Below are positions 29,245-49,080 of a stretch of 64,000 bases of DNA, one piece after another. The position numbers and the translations under genes are program-made. The stretch's first letter is position 1. Each line of letters opens with the position of its first letter. A model generated the notes under the pieces. It was given only the letters and a program-made list of their open reading frames with translations, was not told the origin of the DNA and searched no databases. This DNA is from a virus. The stretch covers positions 105,184 to 169,183 of IMG/VR virus record IMGVR_UViG_3300032294_003343, one strand, 5' to 3'.

Positions 29245-30099
29245 TTAGCTTACGGTAATTCTTGAAACTGCATAGTCATTGATGAGAGCAAAACCGAGCT
29301 CTTCGTAAACAACCCATCCGAGTCTAAGTCTCTTTGGATCGTCTGCTGGGAGGACAGTGATGTCTTGGCGAACTGGCATTGCACCAACAAATTGAGCAGG
29401 TGCGAGAACGTAAACACTGTTCTTAGGAACCATTGTGGAAACGTGGATGTCAGCGGAATAGATGTGTCCGTAGAGACCAGTCATAAGGATGTCTCTTTGA
29501 GTTGCCTCATCGAAGAATTCCTTACCCCAGTTTCTGATATCCTTGTATCTTTGTGGGTGAAGAACAACCTTAGCACCGATCAACTCGTGCTCTTCAATGA
29601 GGGTCAACGCAAGGTTGACATTCTCAGGTTGGAGAGTACCAGAGACGGAAATTGCTTGGTCAGTTGGAACACCAGCGTTGATGACCTTGAAGACTTCTGT
29701 ATCTTCTTGTCTTTGGAGGGAGTCCTTAGCACGGACTTGAGCTCTATCGACAATGTAGAATCTTCTTTGGCGAATTTCGTTCAAGCGGATTTGTGGGTGT
29801 GCAGCTAATTCAACTGTAGGAACGAGAAGCTCTTCAGCCTCAACCTCAGCTGTTGGAACAGCACCACGCTTAGGAATGACGTATGACTTGACAGCAACGT
29901 CTCTCTCATAGCGAGCAAGAGCACCTTGTGGGAGCTCATCAACCATCAAAAGCTTGCGACCGATGGCTTGGTACATGAGGGAAGTCTTGATTGGCTCAAC
30001 CATTGCTTGTGCAAGAGCTGTGCGTCCCTCTGGAGTCTCGAGAGCCATTGCAATAATGGATTCTCTTTGCTCATTTGTGTTTCTCTTAATCATTGACAT
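29245..30099 (-). CDS. major capsid protein (HK97 fold, compact)
   Basis: 284 aa downstream of protease, scaffold and decoration genes; strong SD (AAGGAG); visibly higher GC with C-ending codons; strong terminator; IGRKLLMVDELPQG...GWVVYEELGF pattern. Confidence 0.8.
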   Translation of the reverse strand: MSMIKRNTNEQRESIIAMALETPEGRTALAQAMVEPIKTSLMYQAIGRKLLMVDELPQGALARYERDVAVKSYVIPKRGAVPTAEVEAEELLVPTVELAAHPQIRLNEIRQRRFYIVDRAQVRAKDSLQRQEDTEVFKVINAGVPTDQAISVSGTLQPENVNLALTLIEEHELIGAKVVLHPQRYKDIRNWGKEFFDEATQRDILMTGLYGHIYSADIHVSTMVPKNSVYVLAPAQFVGAMPVRQDITVLPADDPKRLRLGWVVYEELGFALINDYAVSRITVS

Positions 30100-32637: not shown

Positions 32638-35600
32638 TTAATCTATCCAAGTAATGGATACATCGAGTTTTGATGGATCTTTCTTGGAAGCTTGTACAGT
32701 TGTTCTTGAATAATTTCCACACTTGTAGCAGAATGTATTATTCTTGACTTTATGTGCTTCTCTATCTCCACATGAAGGGCAAACCATACCCACTGGAAGC
32801 ATTGATTCTGCTGTTCTGTCAAAAGACGGTAATGCAGTCTTCAAGTAGATATCTGAATCAACTGTAGCTGATAATCTGACCATTGTTTTGATAGTGTCTG
32901 CAACAGGTCCCATACCAGGTGCAGCTGGGTTAGCAGCTGGCATTTCTGTTGGTGCAGTTGCAGCACCTAATCCAGTATCAGGTCCAAGACCAAGTGGTTC
33001 TTCTTCTGGTGAAGATTTGCCCTTATCACCCATTGAAATTAATTCAAGGGATTGCATAATCTTGTAAGTAGTGCCACAGCTTTGACAATCTGCATTTGAT
33101 TCAGAGATGTTTACATCGTCGGAACCACAAACTGGACAAACTGAACCCCATGGTTTCTTTTCACCTGGTTCTGAAATTGCATCCATATCACCAGATTCAT
33201 TCATATCAGATCCACCAGTAAGTGAAGAAATACCTAAATCACCACCAGCAGGTGCACCACCACCCAAACCTGGATCAACTGGACCAGCTGCAGGGCCTTG
33301 AGGAGCTTGAGCACCACCAGCAGGAGCTCCCATGCCTGGTGCAATTTGTGCATATTTAGCTAAAATATTGTCTCTTCTGGCTTTTCTAGCTAATCTAGCA
33401 CCTTCAGTCATTATTACTGGCATTTCCATGCTATCTTCAGCATTCATTTCGGCATCTACATCATCAGTCTTGAATGTTTTTGAAGATGCAGTAGAAACAG
33501 TTGCAGTAACATCGCCGTTTTCAGATACAATCAAGTCTGTGAATGAGAATGTACCTGGATCAACTTGGAATCCATGACCTTGAAGAACTTCAATTGCTTT
33601 TTGCTTGAATGATTCATCAAAATTGCTATCACTTGGTTGTACGCCATCTAAATCTTCAGCTCTGCACATAAATCTAATGCAGTCAGATTTGCTTTGAGTA
33701 ACTGTCATACCAGCTGTTCTTTCAGAAGCTAAAACAGCCTTGGCTACTAACTTTTCTGCAACTTCGAATTCTTCACAAAGTCTCTTTGCAGCTTTAGCAA
33801 TTCTTCTTGTGCTGATACCAAAGTTTGTTGAATAATCTGCCAACCAACCAATGACATTTTCAGAAATATTCTTTGTGGATGCAGTTTTTACACCCCAGAA
33901 TTCTCTTCTTGCTCTAGCTCTCAATCTGCCATCAGTTGCAGTAGCTGTCTTTGCTCTATCAATAGCTGCCATCAATTGTTTTTCTGGCATTGCTTCAACA
34001 GAATCAACAACTTCATCAGGAGTTGTTCCAGTTTCTTTTGATGACATTGCCATTGCAGAAATTGCAGACTTAAGGTCTTCCTTTGAAATTAGATCAGCAT
34101 CAGCATCTACAGCTGACATGAGTGCAGACTTAAGTTCTTCTGATTTTGAAGGGGTTGTATCAACATCTAAACCTTCTGTAGGAACATTTGCTTGACCCAT
34201 GAGAAGCTCTGCAATTCTTGAAACGCCTTCTTTAGTCATTTCACCTTCTTCAACTGCAACTGAAAGAGCATCAGCAAGATCCATAGCAGTAATCTCAGAA
34301 GTAACAGCAGCACCTAATTGCTTAATAACAGCAGAAACTGAATTTTCTGGTTCAGCACTACCACCAAAGAATTCTGCTTTTTCTGCTTTGTCTGCTTCCA
34401 TGTCTGTTCCAGCAGCAGCAGTGCCAATCATTTCAGGAAGCATTGGTTCTTCAGCTAAAGTTTGTGCAACACGAATGATAGTTTTAGGTGTTTCAAGTGA
34501 AGAAATTACAGCCTTGCCTAACGCAGTGATTGTGGCTGTCATAATTTCAGTAGCACTTGCAGAACCTTCAGCACGATGGTTTGATAATTGCTTTTCTAAA
34601 ACTTCAGTTGGGACACCATGAGTAACTTCATCAACAAGTTGTGTTAAGGATTTACGGACTTCGTCATCTTTTACTCTTCTTCCATAAAGACCAGCATCTC
34701 CAAGAAGAATTTCTGTTACAGCGTCTTGGCTTGCACCAGTTTGCTTTGATTGTAATTGTTTTTCTTTGACTTCATTCACAAAACCAGTATTTTTGGACTT
34801 AATGCCATCGACTAAATTATCATACGATTCACCGCTTCTAACTTCGTCAAGCTGTCTTTCTCTATCGTCAAGTCTTTCTTTGACATCAAGCAAAGCAGTC
34901 TTGACAAATTGTGAATAATCCTTGAGCAATTCAGCAGCAACTCTTGTCCCTTGTCCATTTTCCATCAAACCAAGTTGATTTTCATTTAGGATAGGTTCCC
35001 AAGCAGTTCTTTTTCCATTTGTGTAACCTGTGATTGAACCATCAGTAGAAAGAACAACTCTATTACCTGCATTGTCCTCGACTTTAAAATCGATTGTAAC
35101 TGCAGCAGCAAGTTTTTTTCTTTGCTCTGATGCAATCTTTGCAAAGTGATCCATTTGATTTCTGCTCCCCGCCACGAAAGGCGTATTTGTTTTTATATTT
35201 TTGCTTCTTTCATTAGCAATTCTAATGACATTATCAATACTTTTTTGAGTTTGAGCATCATTATTTAAATTAAGTTTCAAACTTAAAATACTTTTTGTCA
35301 AATTCAAAATTTTATTGGAAGATGAACCGTTTTGAGCGCTAGCAAAAACTTCTCTTTTACCATCTCTTGAAGCCCATACCAAATTGTGAATGCTAGAGGC
35401 TAATGCAACACCGCCTCCAACTTGGGTACCTTGATCTCCAGAATAAGTAAGGTCCATTACTTTTCCTACAGATTCAGTTGGTGCATAATTTGCCAGACCA
35501 ATATTGGCATTCATAGGAGAAGCTTGTGCAGCTTGTCCTTGTTGCATACTTTGAGGTTGATTGATTTGTTGAGGTCTTTGGCCAGAACCAACGTCAATTC

Positions 35601-36789
35601 CATCATCAATCATGTCCTGCATAGTTGATTGAAGTTCAGCCATAGATTTGGTTACTTTACCTACATGACCTAAATCAACATTATCTTTTCTAGCAAACAT
35701 ATTCATCACTGCAACTTCCAAGAAGTTTAATGATAAGTTGATTAAATCTAGGATGTTCAACCCAGCAGCAGGATCAATTCCTAAAGCCGTCAAAACTGCT
35801 TGAACAGTTGAATTTTGATTAGCCCCAGCCCCAGCCAATAAAGGGCCACCTACAAGAGTTCCAGCTTGTTGAGCAAGTCTTATTGCAGTTTTAGCTGTAG
35901 AATTAGCTACTCTTAAACAATTCTCGTATTCTGATCTTGCAGAAGATTCTTGTGGAGATCCTTGTAATGCTAGTACGATATTTGCAGAAAGCTCATTTGC
36001 TTTCTTTTCCAAATTCATTGCTGCATCTAAAACATCATCAACATCATAAATTTCTTGAATTTCACAAGATTCAAAAGCACCATCACCAACGCAGCTTAAC
36101 TCAATAAACTTAACGCCATAGTTCTTTTCGTATGCTTTTTTGCCAGATTCAGGATAAATTTTGCCTTTATACTTCTTGAGGTGATCACAATAATCTCTCT
36201 CTGTGTATGCTTTATTGCCACAAATTGAACAAACACCCCATTCAACACTAGCACCCATTGAAACATCGTGAATTACACCAGTACGTATGTTTCTTGCAAT
36301 ATCAGGATAAGCTTCTTCATCTACAAAGAAAGTACAGTAAACACAATCTTCTTCTTCATCCCATTCAGCATAAACAACCATTCCTTTGGCTTGTTCAATA
36401 TCATCATTCTTATGGTTTGTGTAAATTGGCACACCTTCGAATGTTTTATATGATGGGATTTTCTTGCCCTTAATCTCAACTTCTTTGAGTAATTCTTCTT
36501 TAGAAAACAAGTCACCATTAGCATTTACAACATCTGCGTCGATTGCTCTGGCTCTAACCCATAAAAGCTTTGCACCTTTACGAGCTTGCATTTCCTTAAC
36601 AATGTCGAAATCTTTGTATTTTTCTAGGACTTCTTTTGGATCAGCGTAGAGAGATTGAAGACCAATTTTTGCAGCTTCTCTCATATTAGATGAAGCAGTC
36701 TTAATAATATAATCTCTAGCTATATTTCGGTCATTTTCGTTGAGAAAACTATTAATTGTAATAGCTCCTCCTTTTGCAACCTTGTACAT
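32638..36789 (-). CDS. giant prohead (maturation) protease fused to long scaffold/core-like and Zn-ribbon regions
   Basis: N-terminal NANGD...YTNH...VSMG-CSICG..CDH...FIELSCVGDGA HK97-type protease with Zn insert; C-terminal CPVC..CQSC and CPSC..CYKC; start MYKVA with SD GAGGA. Confidence 0.75.
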   Translation of the reverse strand: MYKVAKGGAITINSFLNENDRNIARDYIIKTASSNMREAAKIGLQSLYADPKEVLEKYKDFDIVKEMQARKGAKLLWVRARAIDADVVNANGDLFSKEELLKEVEIKGKKIPSYKTFEGVPIYTNHKNDDIEQAKGMVVYAEWDEEEDCVYCTFFVDEEAYPDIARNIRTGVIHDVSMGASVEWGVCSICGNKAYTERDYCDHLKKYKGKIYPESGKKAYEKNYGVKFIELSCVGDGAFESCEIQEIYDVDDVLDAAMNLEKKANELSANIVLALQGSPQESSARSEYENCLRVANSTAKTAIRLAQQAGTLVGGPLLAGAGANQNSTVQAVLTALGIDPAAGLNILDLINLSLNFLEVAVMNMFARKDNVDLGHVGKVTKSMAELQSTMQDMIDDGIDVGSGQRPQQINQPQSMQQGQAAQASPMNANIGLANYAPTESVGKVMDLTYSGDQGTQVGGGVALASSIHNLVWASRDGKREVFASAQNGSSSNKILNLTKSILSLKLNLNNDAQTQKSIDNVIRIANERSKNIKTNTPFVAGSRNQMDHFAKIASEQRKKLAAAVTIDFKVEDNAGNRVVLSTDGSITGYTNGKRTAWEPILNENQLGLMENGQGTRVAAELLKDYSQFVKTALLDVKERLDDRERQLDEVRSGESYDNLVDGIKSKNTGFVNEVKEKQLQSKQTGASQDAVTEILLGDAGLYGRRVKDDEVRKSLTQLVDEVTHGVPTEVLEKQLSNHRAEGSASATEIMTATITALGKAVISSLETPKTIIRVAQTLAEEPMLPEMIGTAAAGTDMEADKAEKAEFFGGSAEPENSVSAVIKQLGAAVTSEITAMDLADALSVAVEEGEMTKEGVSRIAELLMGQANVPTEGLDVDTTPSKSEELKSALMSAVDADADLISKEDLKSAISAMAMSSKETGTTPDEVVDSVEAMPEKQLMAAIDRAKTATATDGRLRARARREFWGVKTASTKNISENVIGWLADYSTNFGISTRRIAKAAKRLCEEFEVAEKLVAKAVLASERTAGMTVTQSKSDCIRFMCRAEDLDGVQPSDSNFDESFKQKAIEVLQGHGFQVDPGTFSFTDLIVSENGDVTATVSTASSKTFKTDDVDAEMNAEDSMEMPVIMTEGARLARKARRDNILAKYAQIAPGMGAPAGGAQAPQGPAAGPVDPGLGGGAPAGGDLGISSLTGGSDMNESGDMDAISEPGEKKPWGSVCPVCGSDDVNISESNADCQSCGTTYKIMQSLELISMGDKGKSSPEEEPLGLGPDTGLGAATAPTEMPAANPAAPGMGPVADTIKTMVRLSATVDSDIYLKTALPSFDRTAESMLPVGMVCPSCGDREAHKVKNNTFCYKCGNYSRTTVQASKKDPSKLDVSITWID

Positions 36790-36828
36790 ATATTCAATCC
36801 TCAAAAAATAAAGTTATCAATAGGATTT

Positions 36829-44564: not shown

Positions 44565-44945
44565 TTATGTTTTTTTACTGAAAATTACTTTCTTGCCCTT
44601 CAAAAACAATTTATCTCCAACACCGATGCCTAATTTTTTGAACAATCCTTTCTTTGCTTCTACAACAAATACAACATTGTTCGAATCTGGAGATACAGAT
44701 TTAGGGTCGTCTGCTTCCATATCCTTAATATCCACAATCTTATAATTTTTATCTAAAAAAGCTAAAGATAATGGAAAAGAAACATTCTTATTCCAAAATG
44801 AATAGCAATCAGGATAATCAAAAGTAAAAAAAACTACTTCGTAATCATCTAAAGGCTCAGCATTCATTAAGCCTTTAGTGCGTAATTTATCTGAATCTGC
44901 TACAAATCTGACATCGAATTCATCACGGAATTCTTTACTAGCGAG
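44565..44945 (-). CDS. DUF192 domain; open frame begins directly after the in-frame TGA of the upstream gene
   Basis: VADSDKLRTKGLM...FWNKNVSFPLSLAFLD...FVVEA...LGIGVGD; first ATG (44867) lies inside the conserved motif. Confidence 0.75.
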   Translation of the reverse strand, partial: LASKEFRDEFDVRFVADSDKLRTKGLMNAEPLDDYEVVFFTFDYPDCYSFWNKNVSFPLSLAFLDKNYKIVDIKDMEADDPKSVSPDSNNVVFVVEAKKGLFKKLGIGVGDKLFLKGKKVIFSKKT

Positions 44946-45437
44946 TCAAGAACCAACTTTCTTAAATTTATTTGTAGATGCTTTTACGCTTCTAGCTTCT
45001 TCAAGATCAAATCTATCTTTGGTTCTTTGCTTTCTAAATTCATTAACATTATCAGTGCTCAAATAATGGTCACGTAATGCTAATTTTGCTCTTTCAGTAA
45101 GTTCTACAGATCTTCCATATCCAGTGAGTAATCCTGCTGTTTTAAGAGCTAAAAGATCATTATCAGAAATTTCTGTTGGTACACCACAAATTTTGCTGTC
45201 TTTATGTAAAGCAACATAGCTAGCTGCAGTAACTAAAGCATCGGTGTTAGCATCAATTGACTTGAGCATACCAAGATATTTTTCGCTTAATTTAGCTGCT
45301 TCAATTTTCTTTGGAGCTTGTGAAACACCAAGAAGTTGAATTTGGATATCTGAAAGTCCAAGACCTTCCATTGATGGTCCGTCAAATAATTCTGCGTGTA
45401 AATCTAAAGAATGAACTGGTTTAATTGGTATAGGCAT
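44946..45437 (-). CDS. hypothetical head-module protein (possible winged-helix-like C-terminus)
   Basis: 163 aa, SD AAGGA; ends in TGA in frame with the DUF192 region. Confidence 0.65.
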   Translation of the reverse strand: MPIPIKPVHSLDLHAELFDGPSMEGLGLSDIQIQLLGVSQAPKKIEAAKLSEKYLGMLKSIDANTDALVTAASYVALHKDSKICGVPTEISDNDLLALKTAGLLTGYGRSVELTERAKLALRDHYLSTDNVNEFRKQRTKDRFDLEEARSVKASTNKFKKVGS

Positions 45438-46968: not shown

Positions 46969-49080
46969 TTATCGTCTATTTAGATTAACCATTTTTGATC
47001 TTGGCAATCTGACCATAATTTTAGATGTAAGGCATTCATAAGCTACAGCAGCTACAGCATCACAAATATCATCTTTATATCCAGAAAGAGCTTCTATGTA
47101 ATATCTTTTACCTTTCCACTTCTTTTGTAAGAATAAAAATTGAATTTTTGCTTCTTGAATTTCATTTAGCGAAATTAATTTTTTATCTTGATCGTAATAT
47201 TCACCACCAGATAAATCATATATATCAATTCGATCATCACGAATTAATTGAGATAATTCTGTGTAAATATTTTCTTTATATTCTTTATTAAATTGACGCT
47301 CTACAATTGGAATTCTCATTGATTGCAATTTTATGATAGAAGATTGCGAATTCCATTGGTCTATTGATACTTGCTTAAATTTAAATTTATTATGTAAATC
47401 AATTACATAATCTTCAACTTCACTTTCTTTAACTGGTTGATTTTTCGATTTAGGATTCCAGAAATGAATATGGTCTATCACTACTCTTTTTAATGGTTTA
47501 AAGTCAGGGCCAATTTGTCCATACATATTTTCAGTATGAGCAATGACAAGAGCATAATAGTCAGAGGTACGAGCTGGATCTAAATGGCAGAAATACTCAA
47601 AGTTTCCTTCGGCTCTTTCTTTTCTCTTAACCATTGACATAGATGAGAACATTCTGTCTATATCATCAGAAACAAACATAGGGTCAGATGAAGAAGCTCC
47701 AAATTCTGCTCCATATTGCATTTGGAATTCTTGTGGATCTTTTTTCTTTTGACCATCTAACCATTCTTTATCAATGTTAGGATTTGTAAGCCAAGTTGGA
47801 AGTCTCATTACAAGTGTAGTAGGATCTTCTTGTCTATTTTCATGCAAATCATAAAGTAATCCAATTGGACCTTTGGGGTTGGAAAGAAGCATCATTTTTC
47901 CATCTTTACCAAATGTAGCAAGAGATGGCTTCAAATCATCATAAAGAGCATAGTCAACACCAGAATCAGGATTATCTCCTGCCATAGCTGCAACTTCGTC
48001 CATGATGATTGTCCAACAAGTTAAACCAACAAGACCTGAAGCATTACTGGAACCACATCTTAATACCAAAGAACCCGCAAAAAGATTGATATTTTGCTCT
48101 TTTCTTCTTACATTCTCTTCTCGGTCATGTTCAGTGTAAAATCGCATTTCAAGCTCTGTATCTTTGCCAATATAAGGTGCAAAAAATGGAGAAGCTAAAA
48201 CTGTTTGCTTGATTTTAGAGAAGATTGCTTTCTTAGCCTGTTCTTCATTACGAGCAACGTTGAGAATAACAACTTCATCAAATTCCATCAAGCCATATCT
48301 TGCTTGAGGATGACCCATAGAAATCAATCTATATAATTCATAAAGAGCCATAGCAGAAACAAGGAATGATTTTCCTGAACGTCTACCAAGTACTAAAACT
48401 AATTCTTCAAATTTGTATCTTTTAGTACATTTGTCTTGAACTTGCATCCTTAGCTTTGGATCAAATTCTTCAGAGTAAAGTAAATCAAATTCACTTTGAA
48501 ATCCATCAATTATAGGTCTTGCTTCTAATACTTCTACTTGTCTTTCTGCATCAGGATTGGTAGCTTCGTCTTTAGCAAATTTATATCTTTCATCTCTAAC
48601 ACTACCGTCAAGACGTTTGCATTGTAGGCAAGGTGAATTAACAACATTGAAGATTGTCTTAAATTGTTTACCTTCTGAACGAGCTTTTAAGAAATCATTT
48701 TCATTCTTGTGAACATAATCCCATACACATCCCTTACAATCTTCTTGATTATCAGATTCATCTATAACAAGATTGGTATTACCTTCTTGTCCCATATAAA
48801 AACATTTTAGTATAAGTTTTTGCCAGGGATATGGTTTTAGATTACAAAAATAAGGATGCTCAATAAATGTAATAATATCTACAATTTGATCAGGATTAAA
48901 TCTATCTTTGCTTGGTTTAAGAGGAGGGGAAACTTCTGATCTTGTGGCAGGAGCAATTTCATCAACAAAATCATCTGCATATTCAGTACCCTTAAATAAT
49001 TCTGTTACTGAATTGGCTTGCTGAAGTAATTGTGTTCGTAATTCTGCGGGAGATTTAGGAACTTGGGTTTGTTTTCTCAT
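46969..49080 (-). CDS. terL: terminase large subunit
   Basis: PWQ motif, Walker A GRRSGKS, Walker B IIMDE, LSNP coupling motif, RNase H-type HLDPA...SIDQW...KDDICDA. Confidence 0.9.
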   Translation of the reverse strand: MRKQTQVPKSPAELRTQLLQQANSVTELFKGTEYADDFVDEIAPATRSEVSPPLKPSKDRFNPDQIVDIITFIEHPYFCNLKPYPWQKLILKCFYMGQEGNTNLVIDESDNQEDCKGCVWDYVHKNENDFLKARSEGKQFKTIFNVVNSPCLQCKRLDGSVRDERYKFAKDEATNPDAERQVEVLEARPIIDGFQSEFDLLYSEEFDPKLRMQVQDKCTKRYKFEELVLVLGRRSGKSFLVSAMALYELYRLISMGHPQARYGLMEFDEVVILNVARNEEQAKKAIFSKIKQTVLASPFFAPYIGKDTELEMRFYTEHDREENVRRKEQNINLFAGSLVLRCGSSNASGLVGLTCWTIIMDEVAAMAGDNPDSGVDYALYDDLKPSLATFGKDGKMMLLSNPKGPIGLLYDLHENRQEDPTTLVMRLPTWLTNPNIDKEWLDGQKKKDPQEFQMQYGAEFGASSSDPMFVSDDIDRMFSSMSMVKRKERAEGNFEYFCHLDPARTSDYYALVIAHTENMYGQIGPDFKPLKRVVIDHIHFWNPKSKNQPVKESEVEDYVIDLHNKFKFKQVSIDQWNSQSSIIKLQSMRIPIVERQFNKEYKENIYTELSQLIRDDRIDIYDLSGGEYYDQDKKLISLNEIQEAKIQFLFLQKKWKGKRYYIEALSGYKDDICDAVAAVAYECLTSKIMVRLPRSKMVNLNRR

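Follow-up and report, generated by a model that had tools for sequence, protein, structure and literature searches.

The window analysed here is a stretch of 64,000 nucleotides (nt) that forms the terminal 64 kb of the IMG/VR virus record IMGVR_UViG_3300032294_003343 (169,183 bases, CheckV completeness 47%). On its minus strand, an open reading frame (ORF) of 163 codons is separated by a single in-frame UGA from a region that encodes a DUF192 domain and offers no start codon ahead of it. It is proposed, with a probability of about 0.75, that this gene is expressed by programmed readthrough of the UGA, giving a major product of 163 residues and a minor product of 290 residues. Site-specific readthrough with forms of 163 and ~290 residues had already been suggested in an initial annotation made from the letters of the window, and the comparative analysis described below supports this suggestion by the conservation of the stop, by selection on the codons behind it and by the lack of an own start for the downstream domain.

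The upstream ORF (44949..45437, minus strand, as are all parts of the junction) ends with ...F-K-K-V-G-S and is followed by the TGA at 44946..44948 and by a CTC leucine codon at 44943..44945. After the TGA, frame 0 stays open for 126 codons until a terminal TAA is reached at 44565..44567. The earliest in-frame ATG, GTG or TTG is the ATG at 44867..44865, which is codon 27 after the stop and lies within DUF192. The 26 codons between the stop and this first start (44868..44945) encode a linker and then the strand and helix with which DUF192 opens (VRFVAD..K.R.KGL). The DUF192 domain itself (PF02643; 44607..44903) was matched by post-stop residues 15-113, which cover profile positions 5-94 of 96 with 75 bits (cut-off 27) and an E-value of 5e-21. 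Its onset is located 12 codons upstream of the first possible start, and the Met encoded at 44867 corresponds to the M of the GLM motif that is found across the family. With a conventional start at codon 27, DUF192 would therefore lose its first strand and helix. An inner hairpin, GAATTC-CGTGAT-GAATTC, with a 6-bp stem and a 6-nt loop (CGUGAU) is located 12 nt past the stop at 44916..44933. In the 169-kb record, this junction is the only pair of in-frame ORFs that lacks a start within nine codons after the stop, and among the 124 non-overlapping long ORFs of the record the recoded gene is the only one that is terminated by TGAC.

The coordinates that the initial annotation had assigned to the ORF, the TGA and the ATG, and the gap between stop and start, were all verified on the sequence. 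The same was true for its observations that the DUF192 signature precedes the first start and that the hairpin begins 12 nt past the stop. It had further noted that UGAC can pair with a downstream GUCA; this pairing is present in the window, but it is not conserved, as most relatives have GTT instead of GTC.

Scanning of viral, metagenome and genome collections yielded 220 loci, which after deduplication corresponded to 121 distinct sequences with both halves of the gene. Together with one additional variant, L160, this gave a total of 122 distinct sequences from ~60 metagenomes, with protein identities from 98% down to ~52%. The initial annotation had set its reading against homologs that carry a sense codon at the stop position or that start independently upstream of the DUF192 motif. 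No such homolog was found: the internal stop is an in-frame TGA followed by C in 122 of 122 distinct relatives (121 of 121 plus L160), and in none of them is an in-frame start present upstream of the conserved VRF-[VI]-A-[DN] strand. Frame 0 is likewise retained in all 122, despite indels on either side of the stop. The terminal stop of the extended frame served as a control and varies among the relatives (TAA in 85, TAG in 22 and TGA in 7). A sequencing error and a recent TGG-to-TGA mutation, both considered as alternatives, were rejected on the basis of the presence of TGA in independent assemblies of these ~60 metagenomes. In L160 (640-800), an in-frame deletion has removed ~24 codons from the upstream ORF, in its basic C-terminal tail; the sequence GGT TCA TGA CTC and the hairpin are nonetheless retained unaltered.

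The conservation extends to the bases that follow the stop. C at position +4 and U at position +5 are invariant, and the codon after the TGA is CTC in 81, CTG in 37 and CTA in 3 of 121 relatives, so that +6 is C, G or A. These three codons represent 13% of the Leu codons in the genome, whereas CTT, TTA and TTG, which represent 87%, were never found directly after the TGA. The synonymous single-step changes from CTG to TTG and from CTA to TTA were never observed at this place. That such available synonymous changes were never fixed indicates selection on the nucleotides C at +4 and U at +5 and a bar to U at +6.

When the read-through product was used as a protein query, ~90 apparently 'fused' proteins of 290 residues were identified in public collections (P0001-P0103; loci L136, L137 and L138), and Trp is present at the stop site in 88 of the 88 that were aligned. 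The possibility that these proteins are sense-codon variants was rejected. All three that were looked up on their contigs give the fusion only when TGA is read as Trp, and the entries stem from short low-GC contigs that were translated with code 4 by gene callers. The 'fused' 290-residue entries are systematic artefacts of code-4 gene calling, which hide the recoding.

Selection on the codons behind the stop was assessed from the ratio of nonsynonymous to synonymous polymorphism (pN/pS) in 110 full-length sequences. The ratio was 0.34 for the upstream ORF, 0.38 for the segment between the stop and the first ATG (26-30 codons, depending on the relative) and 0.37 for the rest of DUF192. As pN/pS in this segment equals that of its flanks, the codons in the gap evolve as protein, and judged by this pattern the post-stop codons are translated. 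An AlphaFold (AF2) model of the 290-residue product was obtained with a predicted local distance difference test (pLDDT) score of 66. In this model the DUF192 fold starts at residue ~169 and its first strand, VRFVAD, is encoded before the first ATG. The DUF192 part matched the structures 3pjy (Z 15.6, root-mean-square deviation 2.4 over 111 residues) and 3m7a (Z 15.0), and a Foldseek search matched the DUF192 fold with an E-value of 4e-7. The stop position is placed in a disordered linker of the model (residues 160-167, pLDDT <50).

A different arrangement was found in sister lineages. In L235, the upstream homolog stops at TAG and the ATG of the DUF192 gene overlaps this stop (ATGCTAG). The encoded DUF192 protein begins with M-L-E-K-P-D-F-I-F-K-I-R-F-V-A-D, and the ATG-CTA of L235 is aligned with the TGA-CTC of the focal clade. 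In L132 and L237 one gene intervenes between the upstream homolog and the DUF192 gene, and the DUF192 gene of L132 is equipped with a GGAG and an ATG of its own, the latter a few codons ahead of V-R-F-I-A-D. The sister lineages show the ancestral two-gene state. DUF192 is thus a stable member of the gene block that requires its first strand, and the focal clade has swapped the own start of DUF192 for an in-frame UGA.

The RNA 3' of the stop was analysed for conserved structure. The inner 6-bp hairpin is paired in 93.9% of the alignment cells and contains 39 compensatory cells, a result that was matched by 0 of 500 shuffles. Its closing pair is G-C in 42 and A-U in 23 sequences, and its second pair is U-A in 61 and C-G in 10. 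Arg in the loop is encoded by CGT in 64 sequences, whereas codon choice at other Arg residues varies freely, which is a local depression of synonymous variation. In many relatives the stem is lengthened to ~13 bp and begins 4 nt past the stop, and in distant clades this place is taken by other hairpins, their spacers ranging from 4 to 13 nt. Sliding windows of 36 nt were compared in 24 cluster representatives (<=85% nucleotide identity), and of 262 positions in the gene those immediately 3' of the stop ranked 1-6 for structure. Conservation of the hairpin at this site, which the initial annotation had proposed as a check, was therefore only partly borne out: the named hairpin is real and covaries but has a clade-specific sequence, and the general feature is some hairpin 4-13 nt past the stop. 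A second local structure minimum is located at 44847-44897 (minus strand), +51 to +102 nt past the stop, and is kept in the 24 cluster representatives. Its stem, AAAGGCU/AGCCUUU, is built from the codons for K-G and for P-L in the KGLM..EPL motif. This second minimum may contribute to the readthrough signal or be a consequence of the conserved codons.

In the proposed mechanism, translation by most ribosomes would end at the UGA and yield the winged-helix-like protein of 163 residues. A minority would decode the UGA, most likely as Trp by the near-cognate tRNA-Trp of the host, and would continue in frame to produce a protein of 290 residues in which a complete DUF192 is carried on a flexible linker. 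The signal would consist of two parts, namely the weak termination context UGA-CU[C/G/A] and the RNA hairpin 4-13 nt downstream. For the release factor RF2 of Escherichia coli, UGAC is the weakest context. A stop followed by C at +4 is classically leaky, most of all when it is UGA, and UGA-CUA followed by a stem-loop after a spacer of 7-8 nt is known as the 'Type II' readthrough signal, which occurs in alphaviruses and a number of plant viruses (PMC7026636, PMC3159437). In the A1 protein of phage Qbeta, Trp is inserted at UGA about once per 15 passages (PMC8067240), and by analogy an efficiency of a few percent may be expected here.

Several points weigh against readthrough stimulated by such a signal. 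RNAalifold gave no single consensus structure for 89 junctions, and the folds of single sequences only modestly beat shuffled ones, the window itself having a z-score of +0.35. The covariation represents perhaps 2-3 independent events. In addition, UGA-CUN signals have been characterised in eukaryotic systems, and an effect of them on bacterial RF2 beyond that of the C at +4 is putative. Taking these points together with the pairing data, we read the putative stimulatory hairpin as real yet evolutionarily plastic.

The standard genetic code applies to the record, in which the ORFs tile normally and TAA, TGA and TAG are all in use as stops. The initial annotation had described TGA as a normal stop elsewhere and, indeed, 19 of the 124 non-overlapping long ORFs of the 169-kb record are terminated by it. 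Global reassignment of TGA or late-gene recoding (code 4 or 25) was rejected on this count, together with the occurrence of one such site per 169 kb and the lack of a suppressor tRNA. No tRNA genes were found in the 169-kb record. A relative of 358 kb (89% complete) encodes nine tRNAs (Asn, Glu, Gln, Thr, Arg, Ser, Met, Lys and Leu), and none for UGA, Trp or selenocysteine (Sec). When five records of the family were searched for release-factor genes, PF00472 had no match and PF03462 had one weak, sub-threshold match in G004 (E 0.008, 12 bits, cut-off 24). Frameshifting, hopping and transcriptional slippage were set aside, both ORFs sharing one frame in all relatives.

An alternative explanation is that the UGA encodes Sec and that the downstream hairpin is a bacterial Sec insertion sequence (SECIS) which is bound by host SelB. 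A hairpin indeed follows the UGA in nearly every clade, and in the predicted apical loops a G is mostly found within the first two positions and a GU is often contained (CGUGAU, AGUUCA, AGUU and GUU). In the window the G and U of the loop are nucleotides 23 and 24 from the U of the UGA, the same distance as in E. coli fdhF, and C at +4 would also aid Sec insertion by weakening RF2. These loop criteria are loose, however, and energy-based loop prediction favours loops that start with G. The site is located in a disordered inter-domain linker and not in a redox motif, and Cys (TGT or TGC) is present at it in 0 of 122 relatives. Moreover, in the sister lineages this position is the start codon of a separate gene (L235) or has no residue, and the residue therefore cannot be catalytic. 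Sec decoding is not known to involve CU at +4/+5 or the exclusion of U at +6. The phage records yielded no tRNA-Sec: the sole match to RF01852 (47.7 bits, cut-off 47; G001:C1:172659-172744, L233) is a tRNA-Ser(tga) according to ARAGORN and was discarded as a borderline false positive. Matches to Rfam SECIS models were lacking at E-values up to 10, and a scan of the junction gave chance-level rows only. Sec insertion might function as a non-catalytic, host-state-dependent gate that doses DUF192 onto a phage morphogenesis protein. If true, this would be the first selenocysteine-dependent bacteriophage gene; Sec decoding, also in the form of such a gate, is considered improbable.

Slightly lower odds are given to a cognate opal-suppressor tRNA, encoded by the unsequenced part of the phage or by the host, that reads the UGA and is exploited by this gene alone. 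Large phages often carry suppressor tRNAs, and with a completeness of 47% the record leaves room for such a gene. Against this, none of the nine tRNAs of the 358-kb relative reads UGA. TGA also ends 18 other long ORFs that tile normally and that would all be extended by a general suppressor, and the strict UGA-CUS context indicates a context-dependent leak.

It is less probable again that DUF192 is produced as a separate protein by termination-reinitiation or non-canonical initiation just past the stop, which would make the in-frame layout incidental. The sister lineages do express DUF192 separately, the overlap of ATG and stop in L235 is typical of translational coupling, and in 37 of 121 relatives the codon after the stop is CTG. 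The codon at this position is CTC in 81 of the 121, however, and a conserved in-frame ATG, GTG, TTG or ATH is not present before the first strand of the domain. A Shine-Dalgarno-like sequence was not found before the stop, while neighbouring genes and the DUF192 gene of L132 have GGAG-type sites. Furthermore, reinitiation would not need the retention of frame 0 that is seen in 122 of 122 relatives despite indels. Plain termination, which would leave a truncated DUF192 fragment of 100 residues starting at ATG 44867 or a decaying domain, corresponds to the annotation by standard gene callers (163-residue proteins) and could use the AAAGG 5 nt upstream of this ATG, but it is hardly credible, as the fragment would lack the first strand, the helix and the conserved R..GLM motif, the 26 codons ahead of the ATG are under purifying selection, the Met is the M of the family GLM motif and not specific to a start, and the domain is intact in >120 lineages.

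The 163-residue protein matched no Pfam or PHROGs family. A profile search identified 102 representatives at 50% identity, which are mostly stand-alone proteins of 140-180 residues. The protein consists of a conserved disordered N-terminus (MP-x-PI...), a core (~46-139) and a basic C-terminal tail. In the AF2 model (mbdb91783f697, pLDDT 71) the core is winged-helix-like and was compared with the MarR-like fold: all 50 top VIA rows were winged-helix proteins, with Z-scores of just 5.4-7.1, and Foldseek E-values were 0.04 or worse. The initial annotation had called this a head-module gene. This label is loose: the position of the gene is between large terminase and portal, and the product has a winged-helix-like core.

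The domain closes with a conserved F-x-[KR]-[VIT]-[AGS] motif. Distant homologs (P0121-P0215) have diverse, unrelated C-terminal extensions of up to 705 residues, which begin right past a conserved F-x-[KR]-x-[AS] boundary motif; Pfam domains were not found in these extensions. In the proteins of the head block (29245-54350, minus strand) the motif [KR]-x-A-[SQA] was observed 41 times compared to 14.1 expected from shuffles, an enrichment of about three-fold, which was strongest in a 569-residue protein, a 1388-residue protein and the portal. In other ORFs, 60 occurrences were observed compared to 42.8 expected. The enrichment is consistent with a cleavage code of a maturation protease. As the boundary motif resembles the motif enriched in the head block, a carry-and-release role for DUF192 is tentatively proposed. 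The short form may act in assembly or be associated with DNA, and by the long form DUF192 would be brought to the same place. Readthrough might thereby set a fixed low dose of DUF192 that is tethered to the upstream protein during virion assembly, and the boundary motif [KR]-x-[AGS] could possibly be a cleavage site from which DUF192 is freed later. A literature search on DUF192 (COG1430) returned no functional studies. Saro_0823, a crystallised cellular member of the family, is a periplasmic protein that bears a signal peptide (PMC3608174).

The recoded gene belongs to a block that is bounded by the large terminase (46969-49080) and a portal of the Mu type (PF06074; 36915-39287, minus strand). 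The portal has a C-terminal DUF559/REase_MTES_1575 endonuclease-like domain at residues ~706-776. The 1388-residue protein (32638-36804, minus strand) carries a head-maturation-protease domain: its N-terminal ~250 residues belong to phrog_18299, a head-maturation-protease family (E 1e-20), and the remaining 1100 residues have no family. The major head protein is encoded at 29245-30099. Six further genes between terminase and portal had no PHROGs or Pfam matches. In some relatives a gene for GLF (UDP-galactopyranose mutase) is inserted inside the terminase-to-portal block, two genes upstream of the recoded gene, as was seen at L137:3844-4953 and on the contig of P0125. Relatives of the source virus are as large as 358 kb, and it is therefore a jumbo phage. 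The G+C content is ~32%, and the habitat is freshwater, as represented by metagenomes. Bacterial genome collections contained two matches, on contigs of 1.8 kb and 3.1 kb from metagenome-assembled genomes, and both look like binned phage fragments. In a tblastn search of cultured or deposited phage genomes, one weak match to DUF192 was found and none to the upstream protein.

RNA viruses, and the RNA phage Qbeta, provide the textbook cases of programmed stop-codon readthrough, and tailed double-stranded DNA (dsDNA) phages are known to use frameshifting to the same end. To our knowledge, A1 of Qbeta is the sole established example of readthrough in a phage. A literature search on readthrough in tailed or dsDNA phages, which was not exhaustive, returned only Qbeta, eukaryotic viruses and genome-wide stop reassignment. 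For the gene described here the comparative evidence is unusually clean, with an invariant UGA-CUS in >120 diverged sequences, coding selection behind the stop and sister lineages in the ancestral two-gene state. If readthrough is confirmed, the 'UGA-CUN plus stem-loop' signal of eukaryotic viruses would extend to bacterial ribosomes, and a natural, compact readthrough cassette would be available for bacterial work. Standard and code-4 gene callers would then both misannotate such genes, with a truncated domain or a false Trp fusion as the outcome, and the uncharacterised DUF192 domain would be tied to phage morphogenesis.

Among known systems, the autoregulatory site of prfB, the gene for RF2, contains CUU UGA C, and the poor termination at this UGA-C lets a competing recoding event win. 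The prfB site, which is discussed in PMC5009743, directs a +1 frameshift and has an upstream Shine-Dalgarno-like element, whereas here frame 0 is maintained and neither a conserved element of this kind nor a slippery codon is present. A SECIS of the E. coli fdhF type shares with the junction an in-frame UGA, the C that follows and a hairpin loop with GU ~20 nt downstream; unlike in fdhF, Cys homologs are lacking here, the UGA falls in a linker, and no tRNA-Sec or match to a SECIS model was identified.

C-terminal extensions of structural proteins of tailed phages are made by frameshifting in T7 (10A/10B), lambda (G/GT) and the Listeria phages PSA and A118. Like the recoded gene, these cases belong to the morphogenesis region of a dsDNA phage and produce a major short and a minor long form with a shared N-terminus (reviewed in PMC5009743). 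All of them, however, are -1 or +1 frameshifts, and none is known to involve stop-codon readthrough. The Type II signals of alphaviruses, tobraviruses and furoviruses (UGA-CUA or UGA-CGG) are similar in the UGA, the following C, the CUN codon and a stem-loop a few nt downstream, the spacer being 7-8 nt in these viruses and 4-13 nt here, and in both cases the signal was detected by synonymous-site conservation and compensatory changes (PMC3159437, PMC7026636). They differ in that they act on eukaryotic ribosomes and eRF1 with stems that span 100-200 nt, whereas the signal proposed here would act on the bacterial ribosome and RF2 with a hairpin of ~18-35 nt. The coat/A1 gene of Qbeta (Allolevivirus) is likewise a phage gene that ends with a leaky UGA, at which a minority of ribosomes insert Trp, so that a whole C-terminal domain is added at a fixed ratio of short to long form from one start (PMC8067240). 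In Qbeta, a single-stranded RNA phage of 4.2 kb, the short form is the coat protein. In the dsDNA phage of ~360 kb considered here, the short form is winged-helix-like, the added domain would be DUF192 and the signal would combine an invariant CU[C/G/A] with a hairpin.

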